A stretch of DNA of 64,000 nucleotides from a virus, in IMG/VR virus record IMGVR_UViG_3300037851_000553, positions 1 through 64,000 of that record. One strand, 5' to 3'. Below, piece after piece: positions 17,112 to 48,281 of the stretch. Each line of letters opens with the position of its first letter. Positions within the stretch are counted from its first letter, which is position 1. The notes below the pieces were generated by a model. The model had not been told where the DNA came from and did no database searches. It saw nothing but the letters and a program-made list of their open reading frames with translations. The position numbers were made by a program, and so were the translations under genes.

Positions 17112-18935
17112 ATGATAGACAAAATAGACTTTTCAAGATGCCGTTGTGAAAATGCTGGGTGGTGTAACTTATTTAAAAAAGAAATGCCGTCAAACCCTCC
17201 AAGTTGGCAATGGTGTCAGTCTATAACGCCATCACAGCGTGAAGAATATTATAAAAAGAATGTTATACAATCTTCTATGAAAAATATTAAAGACATGATT
17301 AGCAAAGTTGATATTGTTCAATTTTATGATAAGTTGCCAGAAATTCAAAGCGATTATGCTGTTTGTGTGATTCCAGCAAACCAAGACGCTGTTTCGTTAT
17401 TAGACGTAACAAGAGACAGTATTATCAGATATGCAAAAAAGTGTGGTGCTGATTATATAGAGTTGTCAGGAAATCAACACCCAGACTGGGTTATGGCAAA
17501 CAAGTACAGAGCTCATCAAGTATCTTCAAGATATAAAAAAACACTATATGTAGATTGTGATGTTGCTATAAAAGATGAAACACCAAATATCTTTCAGATT
17601 ACACCAGACGACAAAATATCGGCGTGTTCTGATTTTACAAGATTCAAAAAGTGGTCTGACACAGAATGGATAAGGAACGAACAAGAGTTAATTGTTCACA
17701 AAGTATTAAATTCTAATCATAAAAATATTAAAAATGGAAAATTCGAAGCAACGGAAATGCTTAATGGCGGATTTTTAGTAATACCGCAATCTTTAGCTGA
17801 TTATTATAAACAGCCATCAAAGCCATATCCTAGACAATGGTGTTTTGATCAAAATTATTTAACACTTACGCTTCCAGACGACAAACTGAATCTTTTATCT
17901 TTAAAATTTAATAACACAACCGTTGCGTCTACTAAATCTAAAGACACAATCATATGCTCAGAATTTTGGGAAGAATTAGACGAGTGTTACATTGTTCATG
18001 CAAATGGTATAAAAAATAACGAAATCAGAAAAGATATTTTAATAAGTTTTTTTGACGGTTCAATAAGAACAAAACAATCAACCGTAAAAACAAACACTCA
18101 GAACAATACGGACAAACCAAAAACAATACAACATAACCCATCCTGGGTTCTTGTTGTTGAACCAGAAGAACCGGTTATTGTGCCACAAAAAGATACGGCT
18201 GTTATCATGCTTGCGGCTGGTCCTTCTGGTAGAGAAATGGCACAATTTACAGGGCCAGCAGCTAAAAGATATGCCGAAAAAATTGGATCTGATTTTGTTA
18301 TGATAGGTGGCGAGGTTGCAAATCTAAAATTTCCATGCGGAGATAAGTTTAGGATACGTCATTATGCTAAATATTATCGTAGATCAATTTATATTGACGC
18401 TGATGTTTTTATAAGAAAAAACGCACCAAATCTCTTTGAAATCGTTCCAGAAGGAACGGTTGGTATGACAGACACATTTTTTACACACATAAAGCCATAC
18501 AAAAAACACCCAAATCCAAATTTTGACGTTATAAGAGACTGGGTTATTCCAGAAGTTTCTGAAATTATGTTGTCGCAGGGTGAAGAACCAACGCCTTCAC
18601 AAATCAAAAAACACTGGAATAGTGGGCTGATTGTTCTTGACCCTGATCTTGCTCAAAAATATTTTGAGCCCATGAAACGCCCATGTCCTCCGTTTTGGTG
18701 TTCAGAAGAGCATTGGTGCCGTAGAAATATTGATGTTCACGAATTAATTATAAGCGAAATTCCCACGAGTATACACTGGGGTTGGTGGTGGGATCAAGAT
18801 TTTAAAGAATTTGAACAAAGCAACGCAAGTTTTTTGCATTTGGCTGGAATGGGCCACAACGTTCCTTGGTGGGCAGCAACAGATATGGAGTGGAGAGTAA
18901 GAATTCTAAGAATACTAGGAACACTAGACAAATGA
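17112..18935 (+). CDS. two-domain GT8-like (GT-A) glycosyltransferase with N-terminal Cys4 module
   Basis: Two GT-A-like halves, each with a DxD (LYVDCDVAI and IYIDADVFI). N-terminal CRCENAGWC...WQWC. The N-terminal half is a paralog of 19558-21396. Confidence 0.65.
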   Translation: MIDKIDFSRCRCENAGWCNLFKKEMPSNPPSWQWCQSITPSQREEYYKKNVIQSSMKNIKDMISKVDIVQFYDKLPEIQSDYAVCVIPANQDAVSLLDVTRDSIIRYAKKCGADYIELSGNQHPDWVMANKYRAHQVSSRYKKTLYVDCDVAIKDETPNIFQITPDDKISACSDFTRFKKWSDTEWIRNEQELIVHKVLNSNHKNIKNGKFEATEMLNGGFLVIPQSLADYYKQPSKPYPRQWCFDQNYLTLTLPDDKLNLLSLKFNNTTVASTKSKDTIICSEFWEELDECYIVHANGIKNNEIRKDILISFFDGSIRTKQSTVKTNTQNNTDKPKTIQHNPSWVLVVEPEEPVIVPQKDTAVIMLAAGPSGREMAQFTGPAAKRYAEKIGSDFVMIGGEVANLKFPCGDKFRIRHYAKYYRRSIYIDADVFIRKNAPNLFEIVPEGTVGMTDTFFTHIKPYKKHPNPNFDVIRDWVIPEVSEIMLSQGEEPTPSQIKKHWNSGLIVLDPDLAQKYFEPMKRPCPPFWCSEEHWCRRNIDVHELIISEIPTSIHWGWWWDQDFKEFEQSNASFLHLAGMGHNVPWWAATDMEWRVRILRILGTLDK

Positions 18936-19546
18936 ACAAAAATATAGTTATATGCACATCACCCAGGTCTGGAAGTCAATGGTTGTCTGAATGTATTCGT
19001 CTTGGGGGGCTTGGTAAATGTGCAGAATGGATGGCAGAAGATATTGTCAACGGAAGAAAACACCCAACGCTTAACTTTCCGCTGGTTCTTCACGGATGGC
19101 TTGCGGCCAGAGCTTCTAAATACATAAATTGGAACAATGTTACAGTTGTTTACTTAAGACGGTTGGACATTGACGCACAAGCCGTTAGCTGGTTTCGTGC
19201 TATAATTGGTAAACGGTGGAACAGTGATTTTCCAGAGGACTCTTTATCGTTCGAACACTACAATTTTCATAGAATCATGGAACTCCGTTCGTCTATCTTG
19301 GAATATAGATCTGTGTGGCAATTGTTGTTCAAAAAACACAACATAAAACCAATAAAAGTTTCATACGAAAGACTTGCTGGTAACTGGTTTGAAATGGTCA
19401 ACCTAATCGAAAGACTTGGAGGAAAAATTGATCCCAATGGGCCAAGTCCACACCAAAAAATTCAACGCGACAACTTAAACAGAAAGTGGTTGGAACGGTT
19501 TAGACAAGAAGTAAAAGCCGGTTATCGTATTGAAATTCCTGTATAG
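18932..19546 (+). CDS. Stf0-type sulfotransferase
   Basis: VICTSPRSGSQWLSE (5'-PSB loop) and VYLRRLDIDAQAVSWFRA (3'-PB region). ATGA overlap with the upstream stop. Confidence 0.75.
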   Translation: MNKNIVICTSPRSGSQWLSECIRLGGLGKCAEWMAEDIVNGRKHPTLNFPLVLHGWLAARASKYINWNNVTVVYLRRLDIDAQAVSWFRAIIGKRWNSDFPEDSLSFEHYNFHRIMELRSSILEYRSVWQLLFKKHNIKPIKVSYERLAGNWFEMVNLIERLGGKIDPNGPSPHQKIQRDNLNRKWLERFRQEVKAGYRIEIPV

Positions 19547-19557
19547 GATTATACAAA

Positions 19558-21396
19558 TTGTCTCAAATAGATTTTTCAAAGTGCAACTGCGAAAATTCTG
19601 GGTGGTGTAAAACGTTTGACAAGGAAATGCCATCAAACCCCCCAAATTGGCAGTGGTGTCAATCTGCCACAGCAGAAGAGCGTGAAAATTTTTACAAAAA
19701 AAACCCAACAAAATTTTTACAAAGGATAAATAAAGCTGTTGAACCGGTTGAATTTTACGACGAATTACCAGAGATTAAAAGCGATTATGCCGCTTGTGTT
19801 ATTCCGGCAACAAGCGATGCTGCTGAACTGTTAGAAATAACCAGAGATGCTATTATAAAGTATGCAAAAAAATGTGGTGCAGACTACATTGAGTTGACCG
19901 GTAATCAAAATGAAAATTGGCCAATGTCCAATAAATATAGAGTTGAACAGGTTGCAAAAGTTTATAAAAAAACCCTGTATTTAGATTGTGATATTGTTGT
20001 TCGTCATGACTCTCCAAACATTTTTATAACTACGCCTGACGACAAAATATCAGCCTATGATGAGTGGGAGATTTGGGAGTCTAGAAAAGACACAGAGTGG
20101 ATAATCGAAGAACAAAAAATAATATCCAACAAGATGCTTGGTGGGGGTGGGAGCTCATTTGTTACAAATAAAATGCTCAACGGTGGAATCTTGGTGATAC
20201 CACAACGTATGGCACACTATTACAAACAACCAACCAGTGTATATCCTAAACAGTGGTGTTTTGATCAAAATTATTTAACACTTACGTTACCAGAAGATAA
20301 ACTTAATAGATTAAGCTACAAGTTCAACTGTGAATATGCAGACCAAAACTTTTATTCTAAACAAAAAGAATCTTATTTTGTTCATATAAATAATATTAAA
20401 AGATCTGATTCAGAAAAAAGAATAGATTTATTAAAAAAAATAAGTAATTATGTAGAGAATATTGATTCTGATCTGTGGATTCATGAAGATATATCTACTT
20501 CTAAAAAGTATCATAGTTGTAGTTTTGCTATAAAGAGACAGAAAAATGAAAACATTAAACTTAAAAAATACATCATCGAACAACAAGAAACTAAATACAC
20601 AGCAAATGATGTTTCCATTTTGTGTCTTGGGCATAAAAAAGAGCAATTTGATTCTATCAAACCCAGGCCATATCTGAAAAATATTAACTTAAATACTATT
20701 GATGCTGGCGAATTTTCTGGAAACGAGTGGGCAGAAGCAAGGGTGTTTTTGTCTAAAAATAATTTATTTGATTCGGACGCAAAATTTTACGGAATGGTTA
20801 CAGCCTCTTGGAACATGAAGTATTATTCTCAGTGTAGAATTGATGATTTTCATAATTGGTTTTCTGCTAAAGTGTTATTGAATTCTAAACCAGAAGATAG
20901 GGTTGTTCTTTGTGCCGACATGTATTGTTGGTGCAACTGGTTAAATGATAAAACTTGTTATAACAACAATAGAGTGATAAACTCGATTATGGACAAGGAC
21001 TACTATGATAATAAGTTAATATTGAGAAATTTTTTACGACTTATAAACTTTAATAGGAAGATACATAAACGTGTTCCGTTTTCAAACCAAATTATTTGTC
21101 ATAAACACTTGTTTCAGGATCTGGTAAACGAAATAAAAGAAAAAGATATAGCAGGAAAAATAAAATGGTTTATAAAAAAACACAACATAGTTAAGCACTT
21201 GTCTTATCCAGAGGGTCACTTTAAAAATATTCTAAATTATTCGTTAACAAGAGTGGAAGCATATTTTTTTGAAGTTTATACAATTGCGTGGTTCACCACA
21301 AACGATTGTAAAATTATAAGCAACACGACCAGATTAGAAAACTGGTATAGTTATCAAAGTATGACAAAAAGAATTATAAAAAATAAAAGTGAATAA
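19558..21396 (+). CDS. GT8-like glycosyltransferase with an unknown C-terminal domain
   Basis: TTG start. The first ~290 aa are a paralog of 17112-18935 (CNCENSGWC...WQWC, LYLDCDIVV, QWCFDQNYLTLTLP). The C-terminal ~300 aa are unrecognised. Confidence 0.65.
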   Translation: MSQIDFSKCNCENSGWCKTFDKEMPSNPPNWQWCQSATAEERENFYKKNPTKFLQRINKAVEPVEFYDELPEIKSDYAACVIPATSDAAELLEITRDAIIKYAKKCGADYIELTGNQNENWPMSNKYRVEQVAKVYKKTLYLDCDIVVRHDSPNIFITTPDDKISAYDEWEIWESRKDTEWIIEEQKIISNKMLGGGGSSFVTNKMLNGGILVIPQRMAHYYKQPTSVYPKQWCFDQNYLTLTLPEDKLNRLSYKFNCEYADQNFYSKQKESYFVHINNIKRSDSEKRIDLLKKISNYVENIDSDLWIHEDISTSKKYHSCSFAIKRQKNENIKLKKYIIEQQETKYTANDVSILCLGHKKEQFDSIKPRPYLKNINLNTIDAGEFSGNEWAEARVFLSKNNLFDSDAKFYGMVTASWNMKYYSQCRIDDFHNWFSAKVLLNSKPEDRVVLCADMYCWCNWLNDKTCYNNNRVINSIMDKDYYDNKLILRNFLRLINFNRKIHKRVPFSNQIICHKHLFQDLVNEIKEKDIAGKIKWFIKKHNIVKHLSYPEGHFKNILNYSLTRVEAYFFEVYTIAWFTTNDCKIISNTTRLENWYSYQSMTKRIIKNKSE

Positions 21397-22492
21397 ATTA
21401 GACTATATAATTGTTGGTGCTGGTTTGTCTGGTGCTACGTTTGCTAGATATGCAACCGATAGGGGTAAAAAATGCTTGGTTTTAGATAAAAGAAAGCATA
21501 TAGCTGGAAATATTTTTAGCCAAAACGTTGACGGCATCGAAGTTCACAAGTATGGACCCCACATTTTTCACACCAACTCTGAAAAAATTTGGAACTACGT
21601 AAATCAGTTTGCCGCTTTCAATGATTACAGACACAAGGTGCTGGTGAATTGTGGAGATGAGTTTTTCTCATTTCCAATCAATTTAAAAACACTAGAATCT
21701 TTGTGGGGTATCAAGGATGATGCAGAATTGATTAAAAAATTTGAAAACGGCAAGTCCAAACATAAACCCAAAGAAAATCTAGAAGATTGGGCTATAGCAG
21801 AGGTTGGTGAAGAAATCTATCGTAAGTTGATTTATGGATATACAAAAAAACAATGGGGTGTTTCACCGGCAAAATTACCACCATCAATAATAAGCAGAAT
21901 ACCGGTTAGACAAAACCGTAATGATGATTATCATAATTGCAAATTTTCTGGTATTCCGTTGTGCGGATACACAGATATGGTTGCGAATATGCTTTTTGGA
22001 ATAGAAGTTCAACTAGAAACAGATTATTTTCAAAAACGGTATTATTGGGATTCTATAGCAAAGAATATTATCTATACCGGGCCAATTGATGAATTCTTCG
22101 ATTACAAATACGGAGAAATGAAGTGGCGTTCTTTAAGATTTCAAGAACAAAGAATAAACCAGACGCTTGTTCAGCAAGTGGCACAAATAAATTTTGTACA
22201 AGAAAACGTTCCGTTTACCAGAAGCGTTGAGCACAAACACTTTATACCGTCTACACTTTTGGATAAAAAGTATACCATTATAACCAAAGAATATCCAGAA
22301 AAATATGTTCCTGGTTTAGAAAAATATTACCCGGTATGTAGCTGTTCTCAGGAAAATCTTCTGGCGAAGTATAAAAAACTTATACCTAGTAAATTTATTT
22401 TTATTGGTAGATTGGCCAAGTTTAAATATTACAACATGGATCAAGCGATTGCTTTGTCTCTATCTAAGGCTAGACTTGTAGTTGGAAACTAA
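21389..22492 (+). CDS. glf: UDP-galactopyranose mutase
   Basis: YIIVGAGLSGATFA, HKYGPHIFHT, YTKKQWG, IIYTGPIDEFFDY, SVEHKHF, GRLAKFKYYNMDQ. Collinear with E. coli Glf as I recall it. GTG start. Confidence 0.93.
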   Translation: MNKLDYIIVGAGLSGATFARYATDRGKKCLVLDKRKHIAGNIFSQNVDGIEVHKYGPHIFHTNSEKIWNYVNQFAAFNDYRHKVLVNCGDEFFSFPINLKTLESLWGIKDDAELIKKFENGKSKHKPKENLEDWAIAEVGEEIYRKLIYGYTKKQWGVSPAKLPPSIISRIPVRQNRNDDYHNCKFSGIPLCGYTDMVANMLFGIEVQLETDYFQKRYYWDSIAKNIIYTGPIDEFFDYKYGEMKWRSLRFQEQRINQTLVQQVAQINFVQENVPFTRSVEHKHFIPSTLLDKKYTIITKEYPEKYVPGLEKYYPVCSCSQENLLAKYKKLIPSKFIFIGRLAKFKYYNMDQAIALSLSKARLVVGN

Positions 22493-22516
22493 TTTTACAA
22501 AAACCTGAAAATCCTA

Positions 22517-22545
22517 TTGACTTAACACCGGCTTTAGACTATCAT
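22517..22545 (+). promoter_or_regulatory. sigma70-type promoter
   Basis: TTGACT, 17 nt spacer, TATCAT. The spacer ends in TTTAGAC. Confidence 0.45.
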
Positions 22546-22622
22546 ATGGTGGTCGGAAACCGTGTCGTGGAACCAAGAACATTAAGAAGCCAAAATATTA
22601 TTCTTGTCGAGAGATAGCCTAT

Positions 22623-23168
22623 TTGCATACGCTACCAAGAAATGGCGTTGGTGCAGAACTTGGTGTTTGTAAGGGCGAAAACGCTGTTAACCTATTGCAC
22701 TATAGTAGAGCCAAAAAACTCTACTTGGTAGACCCCTGGGACAACAAAGAACCGCTTGGAGAAGAGGGAAACCCAAATCATATCACAGCACCAGAATATT
22801 TTTTGTTTGAAAAATATGGAAGAAATTATCAAACTTTGGTACAAAAGATATTCAAAGACGAAGTTGAGTCTGGTAAAGTTGTAACTATTCGTAGCTACGC
22901 AAAGCCATGGCTAGATAGTTGCAACATATTGTTTGACTGGATTTACATAGACACTACACACACGTTTGACGAGACCTTCGAAACGGTTGAGAGCAGCGTT
23001 AATGTCCTAAAAAAGGGCGGGGTACTTGGGATTCACGATTATGAGACTGGGTTTCCTTGCGGATGGGACACAATGACCCCGGTTATGTATTTTATGGGAA
23101 CATTTTTATATCCGGTAGCCTGGGCTGGCGTTGATCGCGGCATAACACTATTTTGTAAAAAAATATAG
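22623..23168 (+). CDS. class I SAM-dependent methyltransferase
   Basis: AELGVCKGENAV, LYLVDPW, IYIDTTHTFDET, GIHDY. Paralog of 32293-32922. TTG start is uncertain because the frame is open from 22521 with no ATG. Confidence 0.6.
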   Translation: MHTLPRNGVGAELGVCKGENAVNLLHYSRAKKLYLVDPWDNKEPLGEEGNPNHITAPEYFLFEKYGRNYQTLVQKIFKDEVESGKVVTIRSYAKPWLDSCNILFDWIYIDTTHTFDETFETVESSVNVLKKGGVLGIHDYETGFPCGWDTMTPVMYFMGTFLYPVAWAGVDRGITLFCKKI

Positions 23169-23176
23169 GACAAAAA

Positions 23177-24805
23177 ATGAAGTGGTTTCCTCTCTGTAAT
23201 TATACACACTATTCTTTACAAATTGGCTTTTCCAAACCAAAGCAATTAGCCAAGAAATGCTCTGAAAATTCTTATCCAGCGTGCGGAATCGCTGATTACA
23301 AAAGCATTTCCGGTGCCGTTTCTTTTTATCAAGCTTGTCTGGAAAACAACATCAAGCCAATTATTGGTTGTTCGTTTGATGGGTTTTCTCTTTTTGCAAA
23401 AAATAAGAAGGGTTGGCTTGAATTAATTCGTATAGCATCTACCATAGACGCCGATGGAAACGTCGATAAACCAATGCTAATAAAACTAGCAAACAACGGC
23501 AACATGATTTGCGTTGCAGAAAACGAATTTTTATCTCCTATAACAGGAAGCGACTTTTACGTAAAAAGCGAAGCGTTTCCAAACACGTATTATGTGGAAA
23601 AAGAACAAGCAGAACTCCATAGAATTTTGTTGTGCTCTGGTATGAAAACAACTTTACCAGATATAAACAAACAGCTAGGAAACAGAAAGAGTGTAGACAA
23701 TCAGATTTTCTTTGAGAGCAATGATTTTTATCTTAAAAATCGCATGGAGATATCAAAGATGCTGACAGACGATCCAAAAATGGAAGTCTTTGAGGAAATT
23801 TTTAATAAGATTGAGAATTATAACATTTTAAATAAGCCTATGTTGCCAAATTTTCCAACACCAAACGGGGTCACAGAGCGTGATTATCTAGAAAAACTCT
23901 GCAACGCCGGGTGGAATAGAATGGTAAAAAACGGTGAAATAACAGACCAAAATAAAGACGAATACCACAGACGCTACAAGCACGAATTTGAAGTTATTGA
24001 AAATGCAAATCTTTTTGGTTATTTCTTGATCGTGTGGGACATTTTGAACTATTGTAGAACCAACGGCTGGATGGTTGGTCCTGGCCGTGGAAGTTCTGCT
24101 GGCTGTTTGATTTCCTATTTGATTGGCATTACTTTAATTGATCCAATTAAATACGACCTATTGTTTGAGAGATTTTATAACCCTGGTCGCAACACAGAAG
24201 ATCATATATCGCTTCCCGATATTGATGTAGATGTTCCAACGGGAAAACGTGACCAAATTATCAATGAATTAAAAGACAAATATGGTCACGACAATGTTAG
24301 TCAAATGTGTACGTTTGGCCGTTTGCAGGGTCGTAGTGCCATAAAAGAAGTGCTACGTGTAAATAACGCTTGTGGTTTTGGTGAAATGAACGAAATAACT
24401 AAATATATCCCAGACGAAGCTGCTATTTCGGATCAATTGGCTGAAATGGACGAAGAAGATCGTAGCATAATTCGTTGGGCACTATTGAACCACGCAGACG
24501 ATTTGCGTGATTATTGTTATATTGACCAAGAAGGTAATTTGCGTGGAGACTATTCAGAATTTTTTGAACAAGCCATTCAAATTGAAGGGACGTTTAAGAC
24601 TCAGGGCAAACACGCTGCCGGTGTCGTTATCTCAAAAGAGCCTCTGTATCTAGTGTGCCCAATGGTCAATCAAAAACATGGTACAGAAAAAATTGCAGGA
24701 TTAGAAATGGCAGACCTTGAGGCTTTGGGTCATGTTAAGTTTGATGTATTGGGGATAAATCTCCTTGATAAATTGATGTATATCGAGGATTTACTAGCAA
24801 AATGA
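23177..24805 (+). CDS. dnaE: DNA polymerase III alpha subunit, N-terminal fragment (PHP-like plus palm)
   Basis: GPGRGSSAGCLISYLIGIT, PDIDVDV, GKHAAGVVIS, VKFDVLGI. Ends at the point equivalent to just after E. coli KFDFLGL. Confidence 0.92.
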   Translation: MKWFPLCNYTHYSLQIGFSKPKQLAKKCSENSYPACGIADYKSISGAVSFYQACLENNIKPIIGCSFDGFSLFAKNKKGWLELIRIASTIDADGNVDKPMLIKLANNGNMICVAENEFLSPITGSDFYVKSEAFPNTYYVEKEQAELHRILLCSGMKTTLPDINKQLGNRKSVDNQIFFESNDFYLKNRMEISKMLTDDPKMEVFEEIFNKIENYNILNKPMLPNFPTPNGVTERDYLEKLCNAGWNRMVKNGEITDQNKDEYHRRYKHEFEVIENANLFGYFLIVWDILNYCRTNGWMVGPGRGSSAGCLISYLIGITLIDPIKYDLLFERFYNPGRNTEDHISLPDIDVDVPTGKRDQIINELKDKYGHDNVSQMCTFGRLQGRSAIKEVLRVNNACGFGEMNEITKYIPDEAAISDQLAEMDEEDRSIIRWALLNHADDLRDYCYIDQEGNLRGDYSEFFEQAIQIEGTFKTQGKHAAGVVISKEPLYLVCPMVNQKHGTEKIAGLEMADLEALGHVKFDVLGINLLDKLMYIEDLLAK

Positions 24806-24846
24806 GTATAATGGTATGTCAACCTTAACTTTTACGGAGTCATACC

Positions 24847-25521: not shown

Positions 25522-25523
25522 GT

Positions 25524-26515: not shown

Positions 26516-26516
26516 G

Positions 26517-40476: not shown

Positions 40477-41090
40477 ATTCTGCAATTGCTATATGCGGAG
40501 ACTCTGGAAGTGGTAAAACAACCATGTCTCTTTTTCTGTGTCAACAACTTAAAAATTGTACAATTCTTGAGTGTGACAGATACCACAAGTGGGAGCGTGG
40601 AGATTATCATTGGAGGTATTTTACACAATTAGATCCATCTGCGAACGAAATTGATTTAATGAAAAGCGATGTTAAGCGTTTAAAAGACGGCTTCTCAATA
40701 CAAAGAAAAGATTACGATCATTCAAAAGGAAAATTTACAGAACCAAAATTGATAGAACCAAATGAATACATCTTGGTTGTTGGGTTACATTCTATCAAAG
40801 CAGACGTAGATCTAAAAATATTCATTGACACACAAAAAGATTTAAAATACTTATGGAAAATAAACAGAGATTTTAAAGAAAGAGGACACTCGATTGAGGC
40901 AATTATAGAAAACATAAAAAATAGGGAAGTAGATTTTCAAAATTATATATTACCACAAAAACATCGTGCTGATATCATTGTGACACACTTTTGGGATAAA
41001 AAACAAAAACAAAGAATTGAAATAGTCAAGGAAAATACACTTTCAAAAAGAATAGCGAGAATATTAAATGAACAAGTACACACAGATTGA
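40473..41090 (+). CDS. PRK/uridine-kinase-family P-loop kinase
   Basis: IAICGDSGSGKTT, ECDRYHKWERGD. Confidence 0.65.
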   Translation: MNSAIAICGDSGSGKTTMSLFLCQQLKNCTILECDRYHKWERGDYHWRYFTQLDPSANEIDLMKSDVKRLKDGFSIQRKDYDHSKGKFTEPKLIEPNEYILVVGLHSIKADVDLKIFIDTQKDLKYLWKINRDFKERGHSIEAIIENIKNREVDFQNYILPQKHRADIIVTHFWDKKQKQRIEIVKENTLSKRIARILNEQVHTD

Positions 41091-41802
41091 TATTTGCAAC
41101 AACAACACAAAAAACCTTCTTAGCGAAGAAATATACGAAGCGTTTAATAAGTTTATTTTTTCAAACGACATTAAGCTGATTGGTAAGCTATTGCACAGGT
41201 TTCATTTTTTCGAACAGACGCGACATTTGCCAGGAGATATTGTAGAGATTGGAGTTTTCAAGGGGTCTGGAGTGGCAACGTTCGTAAAGTTTTTAGAAAT
41301 TTTTATGCCAAACTCAAACAAGAAAGTAATAGGATTTGATATCTTTGATACAAGTGAAGGTTCTTTTATTCTAAAAACAAGAGATACGGAAATTGATAAA
41401 AATAGTATGGAAACTGTCTATAGTAAAGTTGATGCTAACGAACTTTCAATAGAAGCTGTTGAAGCTCGCCTACTTGGTATTTCAAACAACGTTCAAAACA
41501 AAATAAAACTTATCAAGGGGGATGTACAAGAAACATTACCAATATTTCTGGAAGAAAACCCAGGATTTAGGGCTTCTCTGATTTATATTGATGTAGATAT
41601 AGAGCGTCCAACATATCACGCGTTGACTAATCTTTGGGACAGGCTGCTTCCTGGTGGTGTTATTTTGTTTGATGAATATGAATACCACCTATTCAGTGAG
41701 AGCGTTGGTGTCGATAAATTCTTAAAAGAAAAGAACCTTAAATACAATGTGATAACTACAGATTGGTTTGCTCCAACAGCATATATGAGGAAAGAAGCAT
41801 GA
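41068..41802 (+). CDS. TylF/macrocin O-methyltransferase family protein
   Basis: GDIVEIGVFKGSGVATF, VIGFDIFD, IYIDVDIERPTYHAL...PGGVILFDEY. Confidence 0.75.
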   Translation: MNKYTQIDICNNNTKNLLSEEIYEAFNKFIFSNDIKLIGKLLHRFHFFEQTRHLPGDIVEIGVFKGSGVATFVKFLEIFMPNSNKKVIGFDIFDTSEGSFILKTRDTEIDKNSMETVYSKVDANELSIEAVEARLLGISNNVQNKIKLIKGDVQETLPIFLEENPGFRASLIYIDVDIERPTYHALTNLWDRLLPGGVILFDEYEYHLFSESVGVDKFLKEKNLKYNVITTDWFAPTAYMRKEA

Positions 41803-42485
41803 AGAAGCAGATATGGAAAAATATGGAAGCAAAAAGTAAATACTTTGCAGAATTGGCATACATGGCAAAAAGTCTTGAAAAATATGTTGTTGGTGTTGAG
41901 GGTAATCTGTCAGCACGAACAGAAGATGGTTTTTGTATAAAAGCTAGCGGAAAATCATTTCAGGATATTAAAAACCTAGACGGCTTGTCAATATCTTTTT
42001 GTGACACACGCGGTACTTGTGTTGGTGGGTCCAAGCCAAGCATGGAAGTAGAGTTTCATACGCTTCTATACAAGTTGAACCCAAATATTAACTTTATAGC
42101 ACACACACATCCCATAAACTGTCTTAAAATTTTGGTATGTAAAGAAGATACTGATAAATTTGCAAATGAAAGATACTTTCCAGATCAGGTAATATTCAAT
42201 GGTGTAAAATCTTGTGTTGTTCCGTATGCTAAGCCAGGAAAAATGCTAGCACAAGAGATATCTTATGCAACAAAAGAGTCTGGTTTTGTTGTGCCGGAAG
42301 TTTTTTTATTGAGAAACCATGGAATTATTTGTTGCGGAAAGACAGCAAAACAGTGTGTGATAGCAACAGAAATTTGTGAAAAGGCGGCAGCGTGCTTTTC
42401 TAGAACAGCAACCCCGCTGACAAAAAAAGAGATTGAAGAATTAATAAATGACAAAGAAGAACAATTTAGAAAAAATTTGATATGA
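41799..42485 (+). CDS. class II aldolase/adducin-N family protein (aldolase, epimerase or dehydratase)
   Basis: EGNLSAR, PSMEVEFHTLLY, IAHTHP, LRNHGIICCG. ATGA overlap with the upstream gene. Confidence 0.75.
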   Translation: MKKQIWKNMEAKSKYFAELAYMAKSLEKYVVGVEGNLSARTEDGFCIKASGKSFQDIKNLDGLSISFCDTRGTCVGGSKPSMEVEFHTLLYKLNPNINFIAHTHPINCLKILVCKEDTDKFANERYFPDQVIFNGVKSCVVPYAKPGKMLAQEISYATKESGFVVPEVFLLRNHGIICCGKTAKQCVIATEICEKAAACFSRTATPLTKKEIEELINDKEEQFRKNLI

Positions 42486-42790
42486 ACATACGTGTAGATA
42501 TAGATGAAACCATTTGTTTTTATGAAGAAAAAATACCACTAGACGGCAAAAGGGACTACTCAAAAGCAATACCAAGCCACGATAATATAGCCAAAATCAA
42601 TAAATTGTTTGATGATGGTCATTATATTGTTTATTGGACAGCGAGAGGAAGCAGAAGCGGTATTGATTGGAATGATTTTACTAGAAAACAATTAGAATCC
42701 TGGGGATGTAAATTCCACGAATTATTTTGCGATAAACCCTATTACGACTTGTTTATAGAGGATAGAAGTAAAAGGGTAGAAGAAATATGA
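42482..42790 (+). CDS. HAD-superfamily phosphatase-like protein
   Basis: VDIDETI (DxDxT motif I) and YWTARGS (motif II). Confidence 0.55.
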   Translation: MNIRVDIDETICFYEEKIPLDGKRDYSKAIPSHDNIAKINKLFDDGHYIVYWTARGSRSGIDWNDFTRKQLESWGCKFHELFCDKPYYDLFIEDRSKRVEEI

Positions 42791-43641
42791 GAAAAATGGT
42801 TAAAATTCAATTGTTGTATGGTATATCTCTTTATATGGAATATTTTTCCATCTTTAGGGGGCACCCAGAAATTGATTTTGAAGTAGTTTATGATGATAGA
42901 CTGATACGTTCTCTAAGGCGTGAATATGACGATAGATACAGTCAACGCATGAAAGTGCTATTGACTGATATGGCAAACAGTCTTGATAATGTAAGAATAA
43001 CAGACAATAAAGAGGGAACAATATCGTCTCCATTTCTAGTTGATATTCTACCGCACGATTTAGCCAATTATCTGAAAACAAAACCAAATTCTCTTAAACC
43101 CGCTTTTGATCCTATAGAACAGAAGAACAAAGATCCTTATATAGTAATGAACACCAAATGTATAACGGTTCAAGACTTTGGATTAAAAGAAAGATGGACA
43201 GCTTTAAAAGACCCTCTATTTAATTTGTTTAACAAGTACAATACAAAAATTAAAATTGTAGGAGAAAAACAGCCGTCAGATTGTACAGAATACAAAATAC
43301 ATGGCACGTTTTCTATTTATAATGATATAATAAATGGTGGATTATTGAACCTAGAAGATGAAACACTCTCAGACACGGTGGCGTTATACAGTCTAGAATC
43401 TATTTCCAGAAATATCAATATCTTAAGACGATCAATGTTTAATGTTCATATTGGTGAAGGTGGTGGATATGTTCTGTATACACATTGCAACAACCTGCTT
43501 GCTTTCACAAATAAAAAGATCCCAATGTTAGATTTTATAAACAATCCAAATTTTCATTACAAAACTTTTGATCAAGCTGGCTTTTTGCGTTTGATAGAGG
43601 AGAAACTTATTGATGTTAAAAATAATATCACACAGGGGTAA
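42787..43641 (+). CDS. hypothetical protein
   Basis: 284 aa, coupled start, no recognised motif. Confidence 0.4.
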   Translation: MRKMVKIQLLYGISLYMEYFSIFRGHPEIDFEVVYDDRLIRSLRREYDDRYSQRMKVLLTDMANSLDNVRITDNKEGTISSPFLVDILPHDLANYLKTKPNSLKPAFDPIEQKNKDPYIVMNTKCITVQDFGLKERWTALKDPLFNLFNKYNTKIKIVGEKQPSDCTEYKIHGTFSIYNDIINGGLLNLEDETLSDTVALYSLESISRNINILRRSMFNVHIGEGGGYVLYTHCNNLLAFTNKKIPMLDFINNPNFHYKTFDQAGFLRLIEEKLIDVKNNITQG

Positions 43642-44107
43642 TCTCAACGGACCAATACCCGAAAAGGAAAACTCAATAGATTACATTGACAAAGCAATAA
43701 GAACGGGATATGATGTTGAAGTTGACGTTCGAACAAAAGACGGGTCTCTGCATCTTGGACACGATTTTGCACAAAATAAAATCTCATACAACGAACTTGC
43801 TTACAGAGAGGGTAGTTTGTGGGTACACTGTAAAGATATAGACTCTTTTTTTGTTTGTAGAAACTTAAGATCTTTTTGCCACACAGCAGACCCGTTTTGC
43901 TTGATACACAATTACTCACCGATAAATAATTACCTACCTTTGGTTTGGGTTCATGATCTTAGTTTAAATTTAAATCATATAAGTGTAATACCACTTTTAT
44001 CAATACAAGATATCGACAATTTTGATTTAGGACAAGCAAAAAATATATATGGAATATGTACAGATTACCCAAACTATTTAAGTGAGAAACTGTATGGACA
44101 AAAATAA
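43613..44107 (+). CDS. glycerophosphodiester phosphodiesterase (GDPD)-like protein
   Basis: ISHRGN...ENSIDYIDKAIRTGYDVEVDVRTKDGSLHLGHD. Confidence 0.6.
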   Translation: MLKIISHRGNLNGPIPEKENSIDYIDKAIRTGYDVEVDVRTKDGSLHLGHDFAQNKISYNELAYREGSLWVHCKDIDSFFVCRNLRSFCHTADPFCLIHNYSPINNYLPLVWVHDLSLNLNHISVIPLLSIQDIDNFDLGQAKNIYGICTDYPNYLSEKLYGQK

Positions 44108-45641
44108 CATTCAGTTGATCGTTCCAATGTCTGGAACGGGAAAAAGATTTGTAGACGCTGGATACAAAGAGCCAAAACCACTAATAGAAGTAGACGGAAA
44201 ACCAATTATAGCCCATGTTCTAGATATATTTCCTGGCGTAAACGATGTTACTTTTATCTGTAATGAAGATCACGTTCAAAATACCAACATTGTAGAGATT
44301 TTAAACAAACATTGTCCTGATGGTAAAATTATAACAATCCAGGGTCACAAGAAGGGGCCTGTTTATTCTGTATTGCAGATTTTTGACAAAATTGATGATC
44401 AAAAACCAGTAATTGTTAGCTATTGTGACTATGGCACAGTTTGGAATTTCTATAAGTTTTTAGAATCTGTTGACGGGTTTGACGGTGGAATTCCATGTTA
44501 TACCGGGTTTCATCCTCATATGCTTGGTTCTGATAACTATGCTTTTTGTAAAGAAAACAATTTGGTTTTACAAGACATAAAAGAAAAAGAACCGTTTACA
44601 AAAAACAAAATGAAAGAATATGCTTCAAATGGTACATATTTTTTTGCTTCTGGAAAGATTCTTAAAAAATATTTTCAAAAAACCGTTGATGAAAACCTGA
44701 ATCTTAATGGTGAATTTTATGTAAGCCTTGTGTACAAGAAGCTGCTTGAGGATGGATTAAAAACAAAAATCTTCGAAATTGAAAAAATGCTACAGTGGGG
44801 CACTCCTTACGATCTAGAAATTTACAAAAAGTGGTCTAGCTGTTTTTCAGATTTGAAATTAAAGAAAGAAAAAGCACCAGAACAAAATTTTACATTGATC
44901 CTTCCTGTGGCAGGAAAGGGTGAAAGATTTTCTGTAGAAGGATATAAAAAACCTAAACCGATGGTTGTTGTAGATTCATATCCAATGGTCATTGCTGCTG
45001 TAAAAAGTTTACCAAATTTTAAAGAATCTTATTTTATTTGTTTGGAAAATCACGTTTTAGAGCATAATATAGATAGGGAAATACAGAACTATTATCCGAA
45101 CTCTAAAATAATTTCATTGTCAAAAGTTACCGAGGGTCAGGCTTGCACCTGCGAATTGGCTATAAAAAAAATAAATCCTCAAGATTCTATTCTAATCTCA
45201 GCCTGTGACAACGGGGCTTGCTACGACGAATCTGAGTTTTTAAAAATGATAAGTTCAGATGTTGATGTTGTTGTCTGGACGTTCAGAAACAATCAAACCA
45301 GCAAAATAAAGCCAAATATGTATTCGTGGGTCGAAGTAGACGAAAATAACAATGTTCTAAGCGTATCGTCTAAAAAATTTACTGGTGGTGACCCGCTAAA
45401 AAAACATGCAATTATAGGCACCTTTTATTATAAAAGAGCACAAGATTTTGTTAACGGTTTGAACGAAAATTATAGAAGAAATATTCGTACAAACGGAGAG
45501 TTTTTTGTTGACGATATTATAAACCGAAACGTAGAGTCTGGATTAAAAGTAAAGGTTTTTGAAGTAAATCATTATATTTGTTGGGGAACGCCAGACGACT
45601 ACAGAACATATAATTATTGGAGAGAACACTTTGTCAAATAA
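44094..45641 (+). CDS. tandem double nucleotidyltransferase-domain protein
   Basis: Two repeats of the same N-terminal signature: IVPMSGTGKRFVDAGYKEPKPLIEVDGKPII and ILPVAGKGERFSVEGYKKPKPMVVVDSYPMV. Confidence 0.7.
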   Translation: MDKNNIQLIVPMSGTGKRFVDAGYKEPKPLIEVDGKPIIAHVLDIFPGVNDVTFICNEDHVQNTNIVEILNKHCPDGKIITIQGHKKGPVYSVLQIFDKIDDQKPVIVSYCDYGTVWNFYKFLESVDGFDGGIPCYTGFHPHMLGSDNYAFCKENNLVLQDIKEKEPFTKNKMKEYASNGTYFFASGKILKKYFQKTVDENLNLNGEFYVSLVYKKLLEDGLKTKIFEIEKMLQWGTPYDLEIYKKWSSCFSDLKLKKEKAPEQNFTLILPVAGKGERFSVEGYKKPKPMVVVDSYPMVIAAVKSLPNFKESYFICLENHVLEHNIDREIQNYYPNSKIISLSKVTEGQACTCELAIKKINPQDSILISACDNGACYDESEFLKMISSDVDVVVWTFRNNQTSKIKPNMYSWVEVDENNNVLSVSSKKFTGGDPLKKHAIIGTFYYKRAQDFVNGLNENYRRNIRTNGEFFVDDIINRNVESGLKVKVFEVNHYICWGTPDDYRTYNYWREHFVK

Positions 45642-46485
45642 GAACGGATTTGTATATTTCCATCAAGGCATGACAGATCTAGTTATCTGCATGGGGTTGA
45701 TAGATTATTATAGAGAATTATACAAGAATATAAAGGTGTTATTAAGATCCGACGCCAAAGAAATGATGGATTTCTATATTCGTGGAAAAGACAATGTAGA
45801 GCCAATTTATTTTAATGGAGACGACGGTAGATATTATGGAACAATATCAAAAACAGATATAGTTACAAATTCAGACTATTTTTTTTGTCCTTCTGATTTG
45901 AATGGTTATGGTAATTTGTGGCTAAACCCAAGTTATGCGATGCTTACGCACGCAGAACATGACAAATGGAGAGAAGATTGTCACGCCTTTTATTGGTACA
46001 GACAAAACAAAAAGCCAGCAGCATATTTTTCCGAGGCTTTTTATACTTTTTATGATATTCCATACACAACAAGAATAAATAAATTTAATGTAAACAGAGA
46101 CCTTGATTTAGAACAAAGTGTCTACAACCAGTTTATAAAAGAAAACGGTACAGATTATATATTGTATCACGATGATCCAAACAGGGACGCAACACCAGTA
46201 AAAGGTGTTCCTTATAGATCAACAAAAATCAATTTTGATTCTATTGACGAAAACTATAAATATGTAAACCTTCATAGAAAATCAAAGATATTTTTTGATT
46301 ACATAAAAGTGATCGAAAACGCAAAAGAATTGCACCTTGTTGATTCTGTTTGGGCGTGCTTGATATATCAACTAGACTGTAGATACGAATTGTTCAGAAA
46401 CAAAAACATAAATATCTATTGTCAACGCGGCCATTACAACCTATTTTCTAATCCAATTGTACTTCCAAACTGGAGACTAATATGA
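45631..46485 (+). CDS. hypothetical protein
   Basis: 284 aa, TTG start, no recognised motif. Confidence 0.4.
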   Translation: MSNKNGFVYFHQGMTDLVICMGLIDYYRELYKNIKVLLRSDAKEMMDFYIRGKDNVEPIYFNGDDGRYYGTISKTDIVTNSDYFFCPSDLNGYGNLWLNPSYAMLTHAEHDKWREDCHAFYWYRQNKKPAAYFSEAFYTFYDIPYTTRINKFNVNRDLDLEQSVYNQFIKENGTDYILYHDDPNRDATPVKGVPYRSTKINFDSIDENYKYVNLHRKSKIFFDYIKVIENAKELHLVDSVWACLIYQLDCRYELFRNKNINIYCQRGHYNLFSNPIVLPNWRLI

Positions 46486-47315
46486 AGGTACATGCTAATG
46501 TGCCGTTTCGCAACGAGGCGGTATTATTAAAACATCTTGTTCCAATTTGGAATAAATATCCAATTGATGAGTGGGTTTTCTTTAACGATAGATCAACAGA
46601 CAATAGTGTAGAAATTGTTAAAACTTTAGACGCTAAAGTTACAATAATTGATAACACAGAAGCTATAGCTGGCGGCGAGTGGCACGAAACAAAGTGTAGA
46701 CAGGTCATGCTAGATTACAGTAGAAAAAATAAAGCAGAACTTATTTTTGCTATTGATGCAGATGAATTCTTATCTTCCAACATGGTTAAAAACTGGGATG
46801 AACTAATAAACATACTGAGCGACATGAGTTTGAACACATACTGGTATAACTTTGTAGATGACACACAGCATATAAGACAAGATTCACAATATTTACATAA
46901 TTATAAAACTTTTATTATGCACGTTCCAAGTGTGTTAAATTTTACTGGCAATCTACTCAAACACACGCCAAGAACCCCGTTTACAGTGCAGAACCAAGTT
47001 AAAACCAAAACATACGGACTTATGCATCTACAATCCATGAATGTTAAGTTTTATGCACTAAAACAGTTGTGGTATAAACACTGGGAATATCACGTAGAAA
47101 AGCGTCCTATAGAATTTATCAACAGAAGATACGATCCGGTGGTAAACAACCTAGATTTTAATAAAACAAGAATAGAACATTATCTTGTAGAAGGAATAAG
47201 TTTAGATCCTAGCATTTTCGATGAATTGTTAGAAGTCAAGGGATATAAAAAATATATCTTAGAGAACCTAGTTCCAGAACTTGTAACATTTGGTAAAGAA
47301 TTTTTGGAGGATTAA
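46482..47315 (+). CDS. GT2-like glycosyltransferase
   Basis: VFFNDRSTDNSVEIV and IFAIDADEFL. Confidence 0.6.
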   Translation: MKVHANVPFRNEAVLLKHLVPIWNKYPIDEWVFFNDRSTDNSVEIVKTLDAKVTIIDNTEAIAGGEWHETKCRQVMLDYSRKNKAELIFAIDADEFLSSNMVKNWDELINILSDMSLNTYWYNFVDDTQHIRQDSQYLHNYKTFIMHVPSVLNFTGNLLKHTPRTPFTVQNQVKTKTYGLMHLQSMNVKFYALKQLWYKHWEYHVEKRPIEFINRRYDPVVNNLDFNKTRIEHYLVEGISLDPSIFDELLEVKGYKKYILENLVPELVTFGKEFLED

Positions 47316-48281
47316 ATGAAGGTCTTGCTAACCGGTGGGAGTGGATTTTTGGGAAGAAATATTCAAGAATATTTCAAAAGCCTAAAGGGGTATGATTTGA
47401 TATCAGTTTCTAGTCGTGATTATGACCTGCGTGATAGTCGTGCTTGCTGTAAGATGTTAGAAAAACACCGACCAGATGCTATTGTTCACGCCGCCGGAAG
47501 CGTTGGCGGAATTTTAGCAAACAGCAAAAACCCTGGCAAATTCATGTATGACAACCTTGCTATGGGTATAAACATGATTGAAAACACCAGAAGATATAGA
47601 GATAACCATCTTTATAAAGTAAAATTTATAATGATAGGAACCGTCTGTTCTTACCCAAAGCACACACCGGTACCGTTCAAAGAAGAAAGCCTGTGGGACG
47701 GTTATCCAGAAGAAACAAACGCTCCATACGGAATCGCTAAAAAGACACTGATGAAACTTTGTGAAACTTATCACCAACAATACGAACTAGATATTGTAAA
47801 TTTGATTCCGGTGAATATGTATGGCCCACACGACCATTTTAATCTAACAACAAGCCACGTTATACCAGCTTTAATTTTAAAATTTTATTCAGCAATCAGG
47901 AATAAAAGAAAAAAAATAGAGGTATGGGGCACCGGCGAGGCGTCTAGAGAATTTTTATACGCAAAAGATTGTGCCAGAGCAATAGAGTCTGTTCTTTACT
48001 ACAATTGGGATAGAACCATTGGGCCAGAACCTATAAACATTGGTACCGGACAAGAAATCACCATCAAAGACCTTGTTGATGAAATTGGTGAACAAATGGG
48101 TTTTAAAGGAACAATTGAGTGGGATTTTTCTAGACCAGACGGACAACCACGACGCTGCTTAGATGTTGGTAGTGCCAAAAAGCGTCTTGGTTTTAAAGCA
48201 GAAACAGATTTAAAAACCGGACTAAGACAAACCATTGATTGGTTTTTGACAACCAAAAAACAAAAAGAAACTGGAGAATGA
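47316..48281 (+). CDS. fcl: GDP-L-fucose synthase
   Basis: LTGGSGFLG, AAGSVGGILAN, GTVCSYPK, NAPYGIAKK, NMYGPHDHFNLTTSHVIPAL, WGTGEASREFLY, RPDGQPRRCLDV. Collinear with E. coli Fcl as I recall it. Confidence 0.9.
   Translation: MKVLLTGGSGFLGRNIQEYFKSLKGYDLISVSSRDYDLRDSRACCKMLEKHRPDAIVHAAGSVGGILANSKNPGKFMYDNLAMGINMIENTRRYRDNHLYKVKFIMIGTVCSYPKHTPVPFKEESLWDGYPEETNAPYGIAKKTLMKLCETYHQQYELDIVNLIPVNMYGPHDHFNLTTSHVIPALILKFYSAIRNKRKKIEVWGTGEASREFLYAKDCARAIESVLYYNWDRTIGPEPINIGTGQEITIKDLVDEIGEQMGFKGTIEWDFSRPDGQPRRCLDVGSAKKRLGFKAETDLKTGLRQTIDWFLTTKKQKETGE

Follow-up and report, generated by a model that had tools for sequence, protein, structure and literature searches.

What would a phage do with a long run of sugar genes packed on either side of its DNA polymerase genes, and do these genes belong to the phage at all? 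The question is raised by positions 17112-48281 of a 64,000-nucleotide stretch of the virus record IMGVR_UViG_3300037851_000553 (its positions 1 to 64,000), which we call the window and whose numbering is used throughout; open reading frames (ORFs) are named by their first nucleotide. A preliminary description, made from the letters alone, had taken this interval for a phage-borne glycan factory of about 28 genes wrapped around the replicase. We found that the island is a composite of a conserved core, acquired insertions and a second variable site at dnaE-N. Sugar genes do flank dnaE as described, but they occupy two separate variable sites, one of which holds the core that is conserved across the clade.

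The interval contains 35 co-oriented ORFs, all on the + strand. Seven of these form the replicase block (23177-28793, assigned with Pfam), which consists of dnaE-N (the PHP/NTPase half of DnaE), an HNH-like ORF, an RNase_T exonuclease, dnaE-C (the finger-domain half) and three small ORFs. The other 28 are non-replicase ORFs, in agreement with the number of sugar-locus genes proposed. Carbohydrate-related Pfam families were matched at gathering score by 16 of the 28, a further five (19558, 32919, 36160, 42482 and 43610) were backed by orthologues, paralogy or profiles, and one (45631, GT-B-like) was assigned by fold alone. Overall 22 of the 28 received a sugar-related assignment, and the view that the ORFs are overwhelmingly sugar-active stands. 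The remaining six (35022, 35441, 36905, 37801, 38519 and 42787) had no Pfam family, also at relaxed thresholds; relaxing the Pfam thresholds for ten unassigned ORFs gave nothing usable. Seven glycosyltransferases are firm, nine are reached when a DUF5672 protein and the fold-only case are included, and at most 12 with motif-level hints, so that the earlier count of at least ten is attained only with the weaker evidence (9 to 12). Three methyltransferases are firm (22623, 32293 and 41068) and the fourth of the four S-adenosylmethionine (SAM) methyltransferases that had been listed is not. The three nucleotidyltransferase domains were recovered, two in the tandem protein 44082 and one in 36160, as were the motifs NYYHF and GNGGFSLR.

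The surroundings are those of a phage, as had been claimed. The flanking genes encode the large and small subunits of ribonucleotide reductase, PhoH, RecA, DnaB, a Toprim/zinc-ribbon primase, a T4-type dNMP kinase and a PD-(D/E)XK nuclease next to the split DnaE, and a MazG-like ORF was a weak match. Searching IMG/VR with DnaE-C returned 44 loci (L001-L044), 34 of which have the order RecA ... DnaB, primase, dNMP kinase, PD-(D/E)XK, DnaE-N, exonuclease, DnaE-C; the dnaE block is kept in 31-44 related loci. The island itself matches this backbone in composition, with a GC content of 0.35-0.37 in both halves and codon usage correlated at r = 0.95-0.97. All of its ORFs are intact and 28 of the 35 gene junctions overlap or are spaced by no more than 10 bp. 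A 127-kb Logan contig (SRR12687606_1429225) was 100% identical over 20257-38082, and a 67-kb contig from a second sample (SRR12687326_1324591), which by its coordinates spans the window from about -14.7 kb to +52.6 kb, agreed at 99.5% identity throughout the 21.6 kb that was fetched. Gene order from 28827 to 50619 is shared by three IMG/VR contigs of other metagenomes (L047-L049), whose proteins are 40-81% identical to those of the window.

These observations bear on the possibility that the island is non-functional cargo, or that assembly wrongly placed a bacterial polysaccharide locus in a phage contig. The idea of 'stuffer DNA' was raised for cyanophage clusters by Sullivan et al. 2010 (PMC3037559), and the six ORFs to which no function could be assigned would suit cargo. 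Intact and tightly joined ORFs, backbone-like composition, a second-sample contig running across the island and synteny in three other metagenomes are all at odds with it, as are the presence of the core in 29 clade loci and a pN/pS of 0.27 for the island against a co-occurring strain. Sugar genes were also conserved to the same extent as the polymerase. Between the window and its relatives L001/L002, 28827 was 80%, 41068 81% and 36160 78% identical as compared to 71-74% for DnaE, and in the more divergent L010 the values were 56% for 28827 and 46-54% for DnaE. Because of this DnaE-level conservation and the low pN/pS, the sugar genes are, as judged by sequence comparison, under selection and not filler. 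This leaves practically no room for a chimeric assembly or stuffer DNA; we regard the cargo or artefact explanation as extremely improbable, and the concern that a bacterial locus had been mis-joined to phage sequence can be set aside.

The most conserved part of the island is a core block of about eight genes directly 3' of dnaE-C that is found clade-wide. In L011, a distant member, the order is dnaE-C, SSB, a 550-aa orthologue of 28827, a GT1-family transferase, three small ORFs, an IspD/MobA-like nucleotidyltransferase, two ORFs and a homologue of 48708. The distance from dnaE-C to the 48708 homologue is about 6.8 kb in L011 and nine similar loci compared to 20.6 kb in the window, and the enlargement in the window sublineage consists of two insertions, at 30464-32922 and 36905-48730. 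The first core gene (28827-30515) encodes a GT-B/GT4 glycosyltransferase of 562 aa (Pfam GT1-family, 6e-10) whose AlphaFold model (pLDDT 77.6) matched GT4 structures at 1e-15 to 1e-13. Homologues were found in 29 of the 44 clade loci and more than 3,600 times among metagenomic proteins in a 5.8-billion-protein collection; the best 120 were all 71-84% identical and all metagenomic, some of them from Tara, and the 71-84% range holds for more than 120 clusters defined at 90% identity. No match to 28827 was found in deposited phages, a megablast search of 50,697 phage records with 17112-40000 was empty, and DnaE was at most 31% identical to that of any deposited phage (tblastn with DnaE-N). Thus no cultured relative is available, and the genome that carries the island belongs to an uncultured, probably marine, phage lineage with a split DnaE.

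The structural comparison of 28827 was less informative about function. Its second-best PDB neighbour is a transferase of chlorovirus NY-2A, a similarity that is generic to GT4, and Foldseek of the model did not discriminate between acceptor classes. Many distant orthologues carry a CxxC...CxxC zinc-ribbon-like insert between the Rossmann domains (residues ~270-300). The window subclade has lost the insert cysteines, and the matching segment of 28827 is the low-confidence part of the model.

The other core genes follow the first insertion. A pair of GT1-family (GT-B) glycosyltransferases occupies 32919-35019, where 34036 has a clear Pfam match (1e-17) and 32919 a weak one (0.007) backed by its L011 orthologue (4e-10). 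The two have homologues in 24 and 16 clade loci, respectively. Two small ORFs (35022-36163) travel with the core and have homologues in L001/L002 and few others (L008, L012, L015, L018 and L021). The block includes an IspD/MobA-like nucleotidyltransferase (36160-36924) with a weak match of its own (0.0012) and an L011 orthologue that matches NTP_transf_3 at 2e-7 and IspD at 8e-6; homologues of 36160 occur in 22 clade loci. The first insertion, 30464-32922, lies between 28827 and this pair and carries three Pfam-assigned genes, for a short-chain dehydrogenase/reductase (SDR) epimerase/dehydratase (start 30464), a DUF5672 protein with the GNGGFSLR motif (start 31446) and a Methyltransf_24 methyltransferase (start 32293). 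ORF 30464 scored just 18 bits on TIGR01472 gmd and is best matched as GalE-like, and phmmer of 31446 against the PDB returned nothing. Homologues of this insertion are confined to L001, L002, L047 and L049 and are absent from more distant clade members.

The second insertion contains a cassette of six genes encoding a GT61 transferase, a phosphoribulokinase (PRK)-like kinase, a class II aldolase, a mini-HAD phosphatase, a GDPD-like protein and a tandem nucleotidyltransferase, accompanied in the window by extra transferases and an Fcl-like SDR. An IMG/VR search with the GT61 protein 39271 returned 39 loci with relatives at 38-52% identity. Three were close clade relatives syntenic with the window, and the other 36 had none of the replication-backbone genes of the window save for a PhoH homologue in eight. 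The remaining cassette members had homologues in most of these 39 loci: the kinase in 36, the tandem nucleotidyltransferase in 35, the phosphatase in 34, and the aldolase-family enzyme and the GDPD-like protein in 31 each. Among deposited phages the tandem nucleotidyltransferase matched 20 records, of which 19 are Synechococcus phages, and GT61 was found in S-SM2 and Bellamy only. SSM2_204-208 of S-SM2 and genes 209-213 of Bellamy are 36-61% identical to 44082, 39271, 41763, 42482 and 43610 (44082 is 45% identical to SSM2_204 and 42482 is 61% identical to SSM2_207). The S-SM2 genes lie inside a 26-gene sugar cluster, and Bellamy has a sugar cluster of 29 genes in 24 kb. Because 30-39 IMG/VR loci share the cassette without the backbone (the PhoH homologue apart) and because it is present in S-SM2 and Bellamy, the cassette is, by homology and gene content, mobile between unrelated phage lineages and bacteria.

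In the window the insertion opens with three ORFs without a family (36905-39274), two of which, 37801 and 38519, accompany the GT61 cassette. Both show motif-level hints of GT-A transferases, SDDM in 37801 and NDD with GEEDGD in 38519, which also matched Glyco_tranf_2_2 at E=0.013. PDB profile searches with the two were empty, and when they were aligned by hhalign to the GT2 family of 46482, or to one another, the probability stayed below 1%. The GT61/DUF563 glycosyltransferase (39271-40476, Pfam 1e-13) has the NYYHF motif and is followed by a truncated PRK-like P-loop kinase (40473-41090, Pfam PRK 3e-37) closest in the PDB to cyanobacterial and plant PRK (9e-33). A TylF-like O-methyltransferase (41068-41802, TylF/Methyltransf_24, Pfam TylF 6e-13) precedes the class II aldolase/epimerase/dehydratase-family enzyme (41763-42485, Pfam 6e-28), which matched PDB aldolases down to 1e-16 and reached no NCBIfam equivalog. 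The capless HAD phosphatase (42482-42790, 102 aa, DxDxT) matched the profile of PDB 9iqw, a 'capsule biosynthesis protein', at 5e-22, and its D6, D8, T10, K85, D89 and D94 are invariant in 24 sequences. A 284-aa ORF without a Pfam or NCBIfam match (42787-43641) separates it from the short GDPD-like protein (43610-44107), which has an HRGN motif, a Pfam GDPD score of 20.3 bits that is below the cut-off, a PDB match to 3i10 at 0.003 and the conserved residues H8, R9, G10, N11, E20, E37, D39 and H51. The tandem sugar-phosphate nucleotidyltransferase (44082-45641) has two domains, matched as two stretches by both Pfam and NCBIfam.

Three more sugar genes lie to the right of the cassette. ORF 45631 (45631-46485) belongs to an orphan family of 53 homologues, all metagenomic and none with a Pfam match, and its AlphaFold model (pLDDT 93.5) has a compact GT-B-like fold. 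Its best PDB matches were the GT9 heptosyltransferases 3tov (prob 0.99, E 2e-3, TM 0.5) and 1psw, a weak match, and a PDB profile search gave nothing useful; the modelled fold suggests that 45631 is a probable glycosyltransferase. It is followed by a GT2 (GT-A) glycosyltransferase (46482-47315, Pfam Glyco_tranf_2_4 2e-7) and an SDR resembling GDP-L-fucose synthase, of the 3,5-epimerase/4-reductase type (47316-48281, Pfam Epimerase 3e-53). The assignment of the latter as GDP-fucose synthase held as far as an Fcl-like SDR, since it scored 280 bits on NCBIfam GDPFucSynFcl against an equivalog cut-off of 500 bits and has no Gmd partner; no clear GDP-mannose 4,6-dehydratase was found in the island that would make up the GDP-L-fucose pathway pair of Gmd and Fcl.

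Part of the cassette is also bacterial. Taking one genome per species, at least 105 bacterial loci carry the tandem nucleotidyltransferase, and among the 80 retrieved (L092-L171) the PRK-like kinase was present in 56 and the aldolase in 20. The kinase/aldolase/nucleotidyltransferase set is widely scattered among bacteria; it is common in Lysobacter and Obscuribacterales and occurs in Prochlorococcus single-cell genomes as well. In Leptospira ognonensis (L105, 6247-12647) an EpsG-like membrane domain fused to the kinase is followed by HAD, aldolase, tandem nucleotidyltransferase, GtrA and GT2 genes, a layout typical of surface-glycan decoration via a lipid carrier. The company of GtrA, GT2 and the EpsG-like domain supports a role in a nucleotide-sugar pathway, and by this gene context the bacterial set apparently produces an activated sugar with which surface glycans are decorated. 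If NDP-heptose synthesis is a guide, the enzymes would act on a sugar phosphate in the order kinase, phosphatase, nucleotidyltransferase. A literature search found no paper on a kinase/aldolase/nucleotidyltransferase pathway and nothing relevant for PDB 9iqw. As no NCBIfam equivalog was reached and no literature was found, we leave the cassette sugar unnamed. Judging by gene content, the phages have retained the soluble enzymes of sugar activation, with a soluble GT61 in place of the membrane part.

The second variable site lies between the PD-(D/E)XK nuclease gene and dnaE-N. Its module begins with a 607-aa protein (17112-18935) of two tandem GT8-like domains (Pfam GT8 34.1 bits at residues 412-513, cut-off 24.3), followed by an Stf0-type sulfotransferase (18866-19546, Pfam Sulphotransf 4e-16) that had no homologue in the 50,697 phage records or in related loci and no close IMG/VR relative. 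A 612-aa protein (19558-21396) combines a GT8-like N-domain, assigned by paralogy with 17112 and bearing a DxD motif (DCD), with a C-domain of 320 aa. The N-terminal half of 17112 is 54% identical to the 19558 N-domain, to which its C-terminal half also aligns; the 19558 C-domain had no Pfam or PDB match and phmmer of 19558 against the PDB was empty. A UDP-galactopyranose mutase (21389-22492, Pfam GLF 5e-64 with NAD_binding_8), with homologues in 90 phage records, and a class I SAM methyltransferase (22623-23168, Methyltransf_24, Pfam 1e-10) complete the module. In metagenomic homologues of 19558 the same N-domain of ~290 aa is fused to GT8, GT1/GT4, GT2 or Nucleotid_trans domains. Such modular two-domain transferases recall bifunctional polysaccharide polymerases, and the gene for the galactofuranose (Galf)-forming mutase is directly 3' of 19558. 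A WbbM/Glf-like galactan polymerase made of 19558 and 21389 was considered but stays no more than an idea, the C-domain having no match to DUF4422 or any other family.

This site also holds an RTX-repeat protein and two small ORFs, and it varies strongly between relatives. L002 has five different ORFs here with the GT8-like domain alone in common with the window, and in distant members resembling L011 the PD-(D/E)XK gene abuts dnaE-N with no insertion. Even in a co-occurring strain that is 99.5% identical (L045), about three quarters of the 101 SNPs fall in 17112-23168, with the dnaE block and 28827-35444 almost invariant. The pN/pS values against this strain were 0.65 for the sulfotransferase, 0.38 for 17112 and 0.08 for the mutase. 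The RTX-repeat gene (15084-16229, +) is located directly before the sugar genes and encodes a Gly/Asp-rich protein of 381 aa with HemolysinCabind calcium-binding repeats (Pfam 3e-17). Its GC content is 0.447 against ~0.36 in the surroundings, and no homologue was found in any related locus.

How the enzymes might work together is suggested by what they lack and by how their genes are arranged. No transmembrane (TM) helix candidate was detected in the 28 island proteins using a 19-residue window and a Kyte-Doolittle hydropathy of at least 1.6, and across 16608-50943 the sole protein with a candidate was the 88-aa ORF 26249 of the dnaE block. With zero predicted TM helices, the island encodes no export or lipid-carrier machinery. 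Pfam and the hydropathy scan found no initiating transferase, flippase, polymerase, ligase or transporter in the island; GDP-mannose dehydratase and synthesis of 3'-phosphoadenosine 5'-phosphosulfate (PAPS) are missing as well, and the term 'near self-sufficient' used in the preliminary description does not hold. Nor did the island contain a complete Wzx/Wzy or ABC-transporter polysaccharide locus, for which it offered neither a TM candidate nor a Pfam family, and all three components of a Gtr-type system (GtrA, a GtrB-like GT2 and a GT-C membrane transferase) were absent from the window. The + strand gene array runs continuously from 33 to 50943, where it meets a minus-strand operon, with tightly packed junctions. 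A hairpin resembling an intrinsic terminator (50950-50972, +, 9-bp stem with 7 G-C pairs and a T-run) marks the point where the two arrays converge and is the sole strong site of this kind in 13-52.5 kb; there is none of comparable strength inside the island. Promoter-like sites did not exceed shuffled expectation and no tRNAs were found.

From these features we propose that the island genes would be co-transcribed with the replication genes and that the enzymes would act in the cytoplasm of the infected cell. All-soluble proteins and an uninterrupted array make cytoplasmic action together with the replication genes the most likely arrangement. The activated sugars made would be UDP-Galf, an NDP-6-deoxyhexose and the cassette NDP-sugar, the last produced by the succession of kinase, phosphatase and nucleotidyltransferase. 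Soluble transferases may then build a methylated and possibly sulfated heteroglycan on an acceptor accessible from the cytoplasm, using host PAPS. The chlorovirus glycan has a conserved inner part and a variable outer part; here the conserved core might likewise specify the inner glycan, with the variable modules diversifying the outer part.

The acceptor is not readable from the sequence, and its choice is the weakest step of this explanation. Our tentative preference is a phage-specified molecule, most likely a virion surface protein by analogy with chloroviruses, mimiviruses and mycobacteriophages. We favour such an acceptor because of the conserved core with its variable periphery, the soluble enzymes and the precedents in giant viruses and mycobacteriophages. 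Several points weigh against it. The transferase genes belong to the replication module and are read from the strand opposite the putative structural genes, whereas those of mycobacteriophages adjoin capsid and tail genes. The giant ORFs of the minus-strand operon have no Pfam or PHROG match, leaving them a putative structural role only, and mucin-like Ser/Thr tracts are absent from the giant proteins. No capsid or tail gene was identified in the window. The best structural neighbours of 28827 include the small-molecule transferases BshA, MshA and sucrose-phosphate synthase. We know of no marine phage for which virion glycosylation has been shown. Soluble or peripheral transferases are the norm in lipopolysaccharide (LPS)-core and O-unit assembly, so a host lipid-linked acceptor would be compatible with the missing membrane proteins.

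That last point leads to remodelling of the host envelope. On the cytoplasmic side of the inner membrane, phage enzymes could work on undecaprenyl (Und)-linked O-unit or capsule precursors or on lipid A-core, after which host flippases, transporters and ligases would export the altered glycan, resulting for instance in superinfection exclusion or in less adsorption of progeny to infected cells and debris. The 'LPS' clusters of cyanophages and pelagiphages are by default explained in this way (PMC3037559, PMC7029224, PMC12801897). LPS core and O-units are typical products of the GT8, GT4 (WaaG-like), GT9-like and GT2 families, in bacteria the sugar-activation genes stand together with GtrA, GT2 and an EpsG-like membrane domain, a setting of surface-glycan decoration, and the left module is hypervariable between strains in the manner of an O-antigen locus. 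Even the conserved core could be accounted for by a conserved first acceptor such as Und-PP-GlcNAc. The island, however, has no initiating phosphoglycosyltransferase, GtrA/B/C, Wzx, Wzy, WaaL, ABC transporter or TM candidate, and it has a soluble GT61 in place of the bacterial membrane components. A heavily altered repeat unit would also have to pass the host export machinery, and a core transferase as conserved as the DNA polymerase is hard to square with a clade that presumably infects varied hosts. We consider envelope remodelling possible and only slightly less likely than a phage-specified acceptor.

The location of the core beside dnaE raises a third candidate, the phage DNA. Here the core, and perhaps the cassette too, would glycosylate hydroxymethylated pyrimidines as a defence against restriction. 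The core does lie in a replication and nucleotide module with dNMP kinase, ribonucleotide reductase and the weak MazG-like ORF, and a dCMP deaminase and a GT1-family transferase are encoded 5-6 kb upstream of the window. In T4 the beta-gt gene and gene 42 adjoin the DNA polymerase gene, and described phage clusters with HAD/kinase, cytidylyltransferase and GT-B genes install heptose, Kdo or trihexose (bioRxiv 10.1101/2023.12.21.572611). A universal acceptor would account for the high conservation of 28827, and the CxxC...CxxC insert in many of its orthologues could be read in the same direction. No match to a T4 gp42-like hydroxymethylase or to T4 beta-GT was found, however, by tblastn (E<=10) in the window, 9 kb on each flank and 91 related loci, nor any Pfam match to a C5-methyltransferase or TET/JBP protein in the ~80 kb inspected, about half of the genome. 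The 28827 model is GT4-like with no T4 beta-GT entry in its top 50 PDB matches, and 7-12 transferases with O-methylation, sulfation and Galf far exceed any described DNA glycan. DNA hypermodification is distinctly unlikely on this evidence. A broader form, which we think rather unlikely, is that the core (28827, the second GT-B and the IspD-like protein) glycosylates a universal phage acceptor, either DNA or a virion protein, with the variable modules, the sulfotransferase and the cassette among them, diversifying the product in an arms race; its DNA variant would call for a hydroxymethylase-independent or not-yet-seen route.

Reports of marine phages with many clustered sugar genes go back to 2005-2010. 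The large 'LPS' clusters of S-SSM7, S-SM2 and P-SSM2 were described in 2010 with their function called unknown (PMC3037559), S-SCSM2R (2025) has 22 such genes with 13 glycosyltransferases, 'maybe the highest number' in a marine phage (PMC12801897), and pelagimyophages carry many GT8 genes, their commonest family, and LPS-type genes that were read as surface modification (PMC7029224). The claim that this scale goes with giant eukaryotic viruses and not with tailed phages therefore fails given the 26 and 29 clustered sugar genes of S-SM2 and Bellamy and the 13 transferases of S-SCSM2R, and novelty over described clusters is reduced in part by these cultured cyanophages. Like the island, the clusters of lytic T4-like marine cyanophages (S-SM2, Bellamy, S-SSM7, P-SSM2, S-SCSM1 and S-SCSM2R) comprise 20-30 clustered transferase, epimerase, kinase, phosphatase, nucleotidyltransferase and methyltransferase genes, and five cassette genes common to S-SM2 and Bellamy make the homology direct. 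Cyanophages differ in having a T4-type gp43 backbone where the window has split DnaE, RecA and DnaB, and their sugar genes form a hypervariable auxiliary-metabolic-gene island, whereas the window phage has a clade-wide core in its replication module besides. Beyond the cyanophage clusters, the island adds the Stf0 sulfotransferase, absent from deposited phages, and the UDP-galactopyranose mutase. The host-recognition regions of uncultured pelagimyophages, compared by description and rich in transferases, have sugar genes together with tail-fibre genes in T4-like genomes, as opposed to flanking dnaE. What is new is an uncultured DnaE-type lineage without a deposited relative, a core by dnaE, a cassette shared across lineages and the Stf0 sulfotransferase.

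Other known systems share parts of this organization. Chloroviruses and Megavirinae (PMC4691112, PMC9614988, PMC10117803) resemble the island in having soluble transferases, some of them multi-domain, nucleotide-sugar synthesis and sugar methylation, and their glycosylation works without host ER/Golgi or lipid carriers. The island combines soluble transferases, nucleotide-sugar synthesis and sugar-modifying enzymes as these giant viruses do; they differ in having eukaryotic hosts and a proven capsid or fibril acceptor, whereas the island is known from genes alone. Mycobacteriophage transferases glycosylate the phage's own capsid and tail-tube proteins (Freeman et al. 2023, as cited in PMC12619734). 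These tailed phages have 1-4 transferases beside structural genes and no nucleotide-sugar pathway, compared to 7-12 transferases in the replication module here. Phage DNA glycosylation systems (T4 alpha/beta-GT; Pyle et al., bioRxiv 10.1101/2023.12.21.572611) likewise place transferases among replication genes and combine a kinase/HAD with a cytidylyltransferase and GT-B, but they need an adjacent hydroxymethylase, or a C5-methyltransferase with 5mYOX, and have far fewer transferases. Bacterial surface-polysaccharide loci such as that of L. ognonensis use the same enzyme families, with homologous kinase, HAD, aldolase and tandem nucleotidyltransferase; they carry GtrA, polyprenyl-phosphate GT2, an EpsG-like domain and Wzx/Wzy/ABC components, and the phage island carries none.

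Several further features of the replicase block and flanks were observed. The split of DnaE into two genes with the RNase_T exonuclease gene in between is clade-wide. The ORF between dnaE-N and the exonuclease gene (24847-25521, +) has an N-terminal helix-turn-helix (HTH), a Cys-rich middle and an HNH-like C-terminus, and it is sporadic in relatives (L001, L013-L016), resembling a mobile homing endonuclease. The right boundary of the sugar region is marked by 48708-49487 (+), a DUF559/PD-(D/E)XK-like endonuclease-domain protein with an HTH-like N-terminal region and homologues in 16 fetched loci (13 of L001-L044 plus L047-L049). The minus-strand operon at 51003-63976 encodes proteins of 254, 1366, 1709, 184 and 574 aa, and past the right end of the window (L088/L089) a 4141-aa ORF with a faint FG-GAP_2 match fills the entire adjoining stretch; the giant minus-strand proteins are rich in Ser, Thr, Gly and Asn and poor in Lys. 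About 5-6 kb upstream of the window on the same contig (L090, 3243-4849), the dCMP deaminase gene is followed by that of the GT1-family glycosyltransferase (361 aa), which has no BLAST similarity to window proteins, and SSB and thioredoxin genes are close by.

Together these data indicate that sugar-gene clusters extend beyond T4-like cyanophages and pelagiphages to an abundant uncultured DnaE-type lineage, in which part of the cluster is a conserved core and not disposable cargo. The consistent shedding of bacterial membrane components by the phage versions narrows the mechanistic options, and the presence of the cassette in the cultured phages S-SM2 and Bellamy makes its product and acceptor experimentally accessible there. 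If the core does act on a universal phage acceptor, its product would be the first complex sulfated and methylated 'self' glycan of a tailed marine phage. If the acceptor is the virion or the DNA, the interpretation of these 'auxiliary metabolic genes' in ocean viromes would change.

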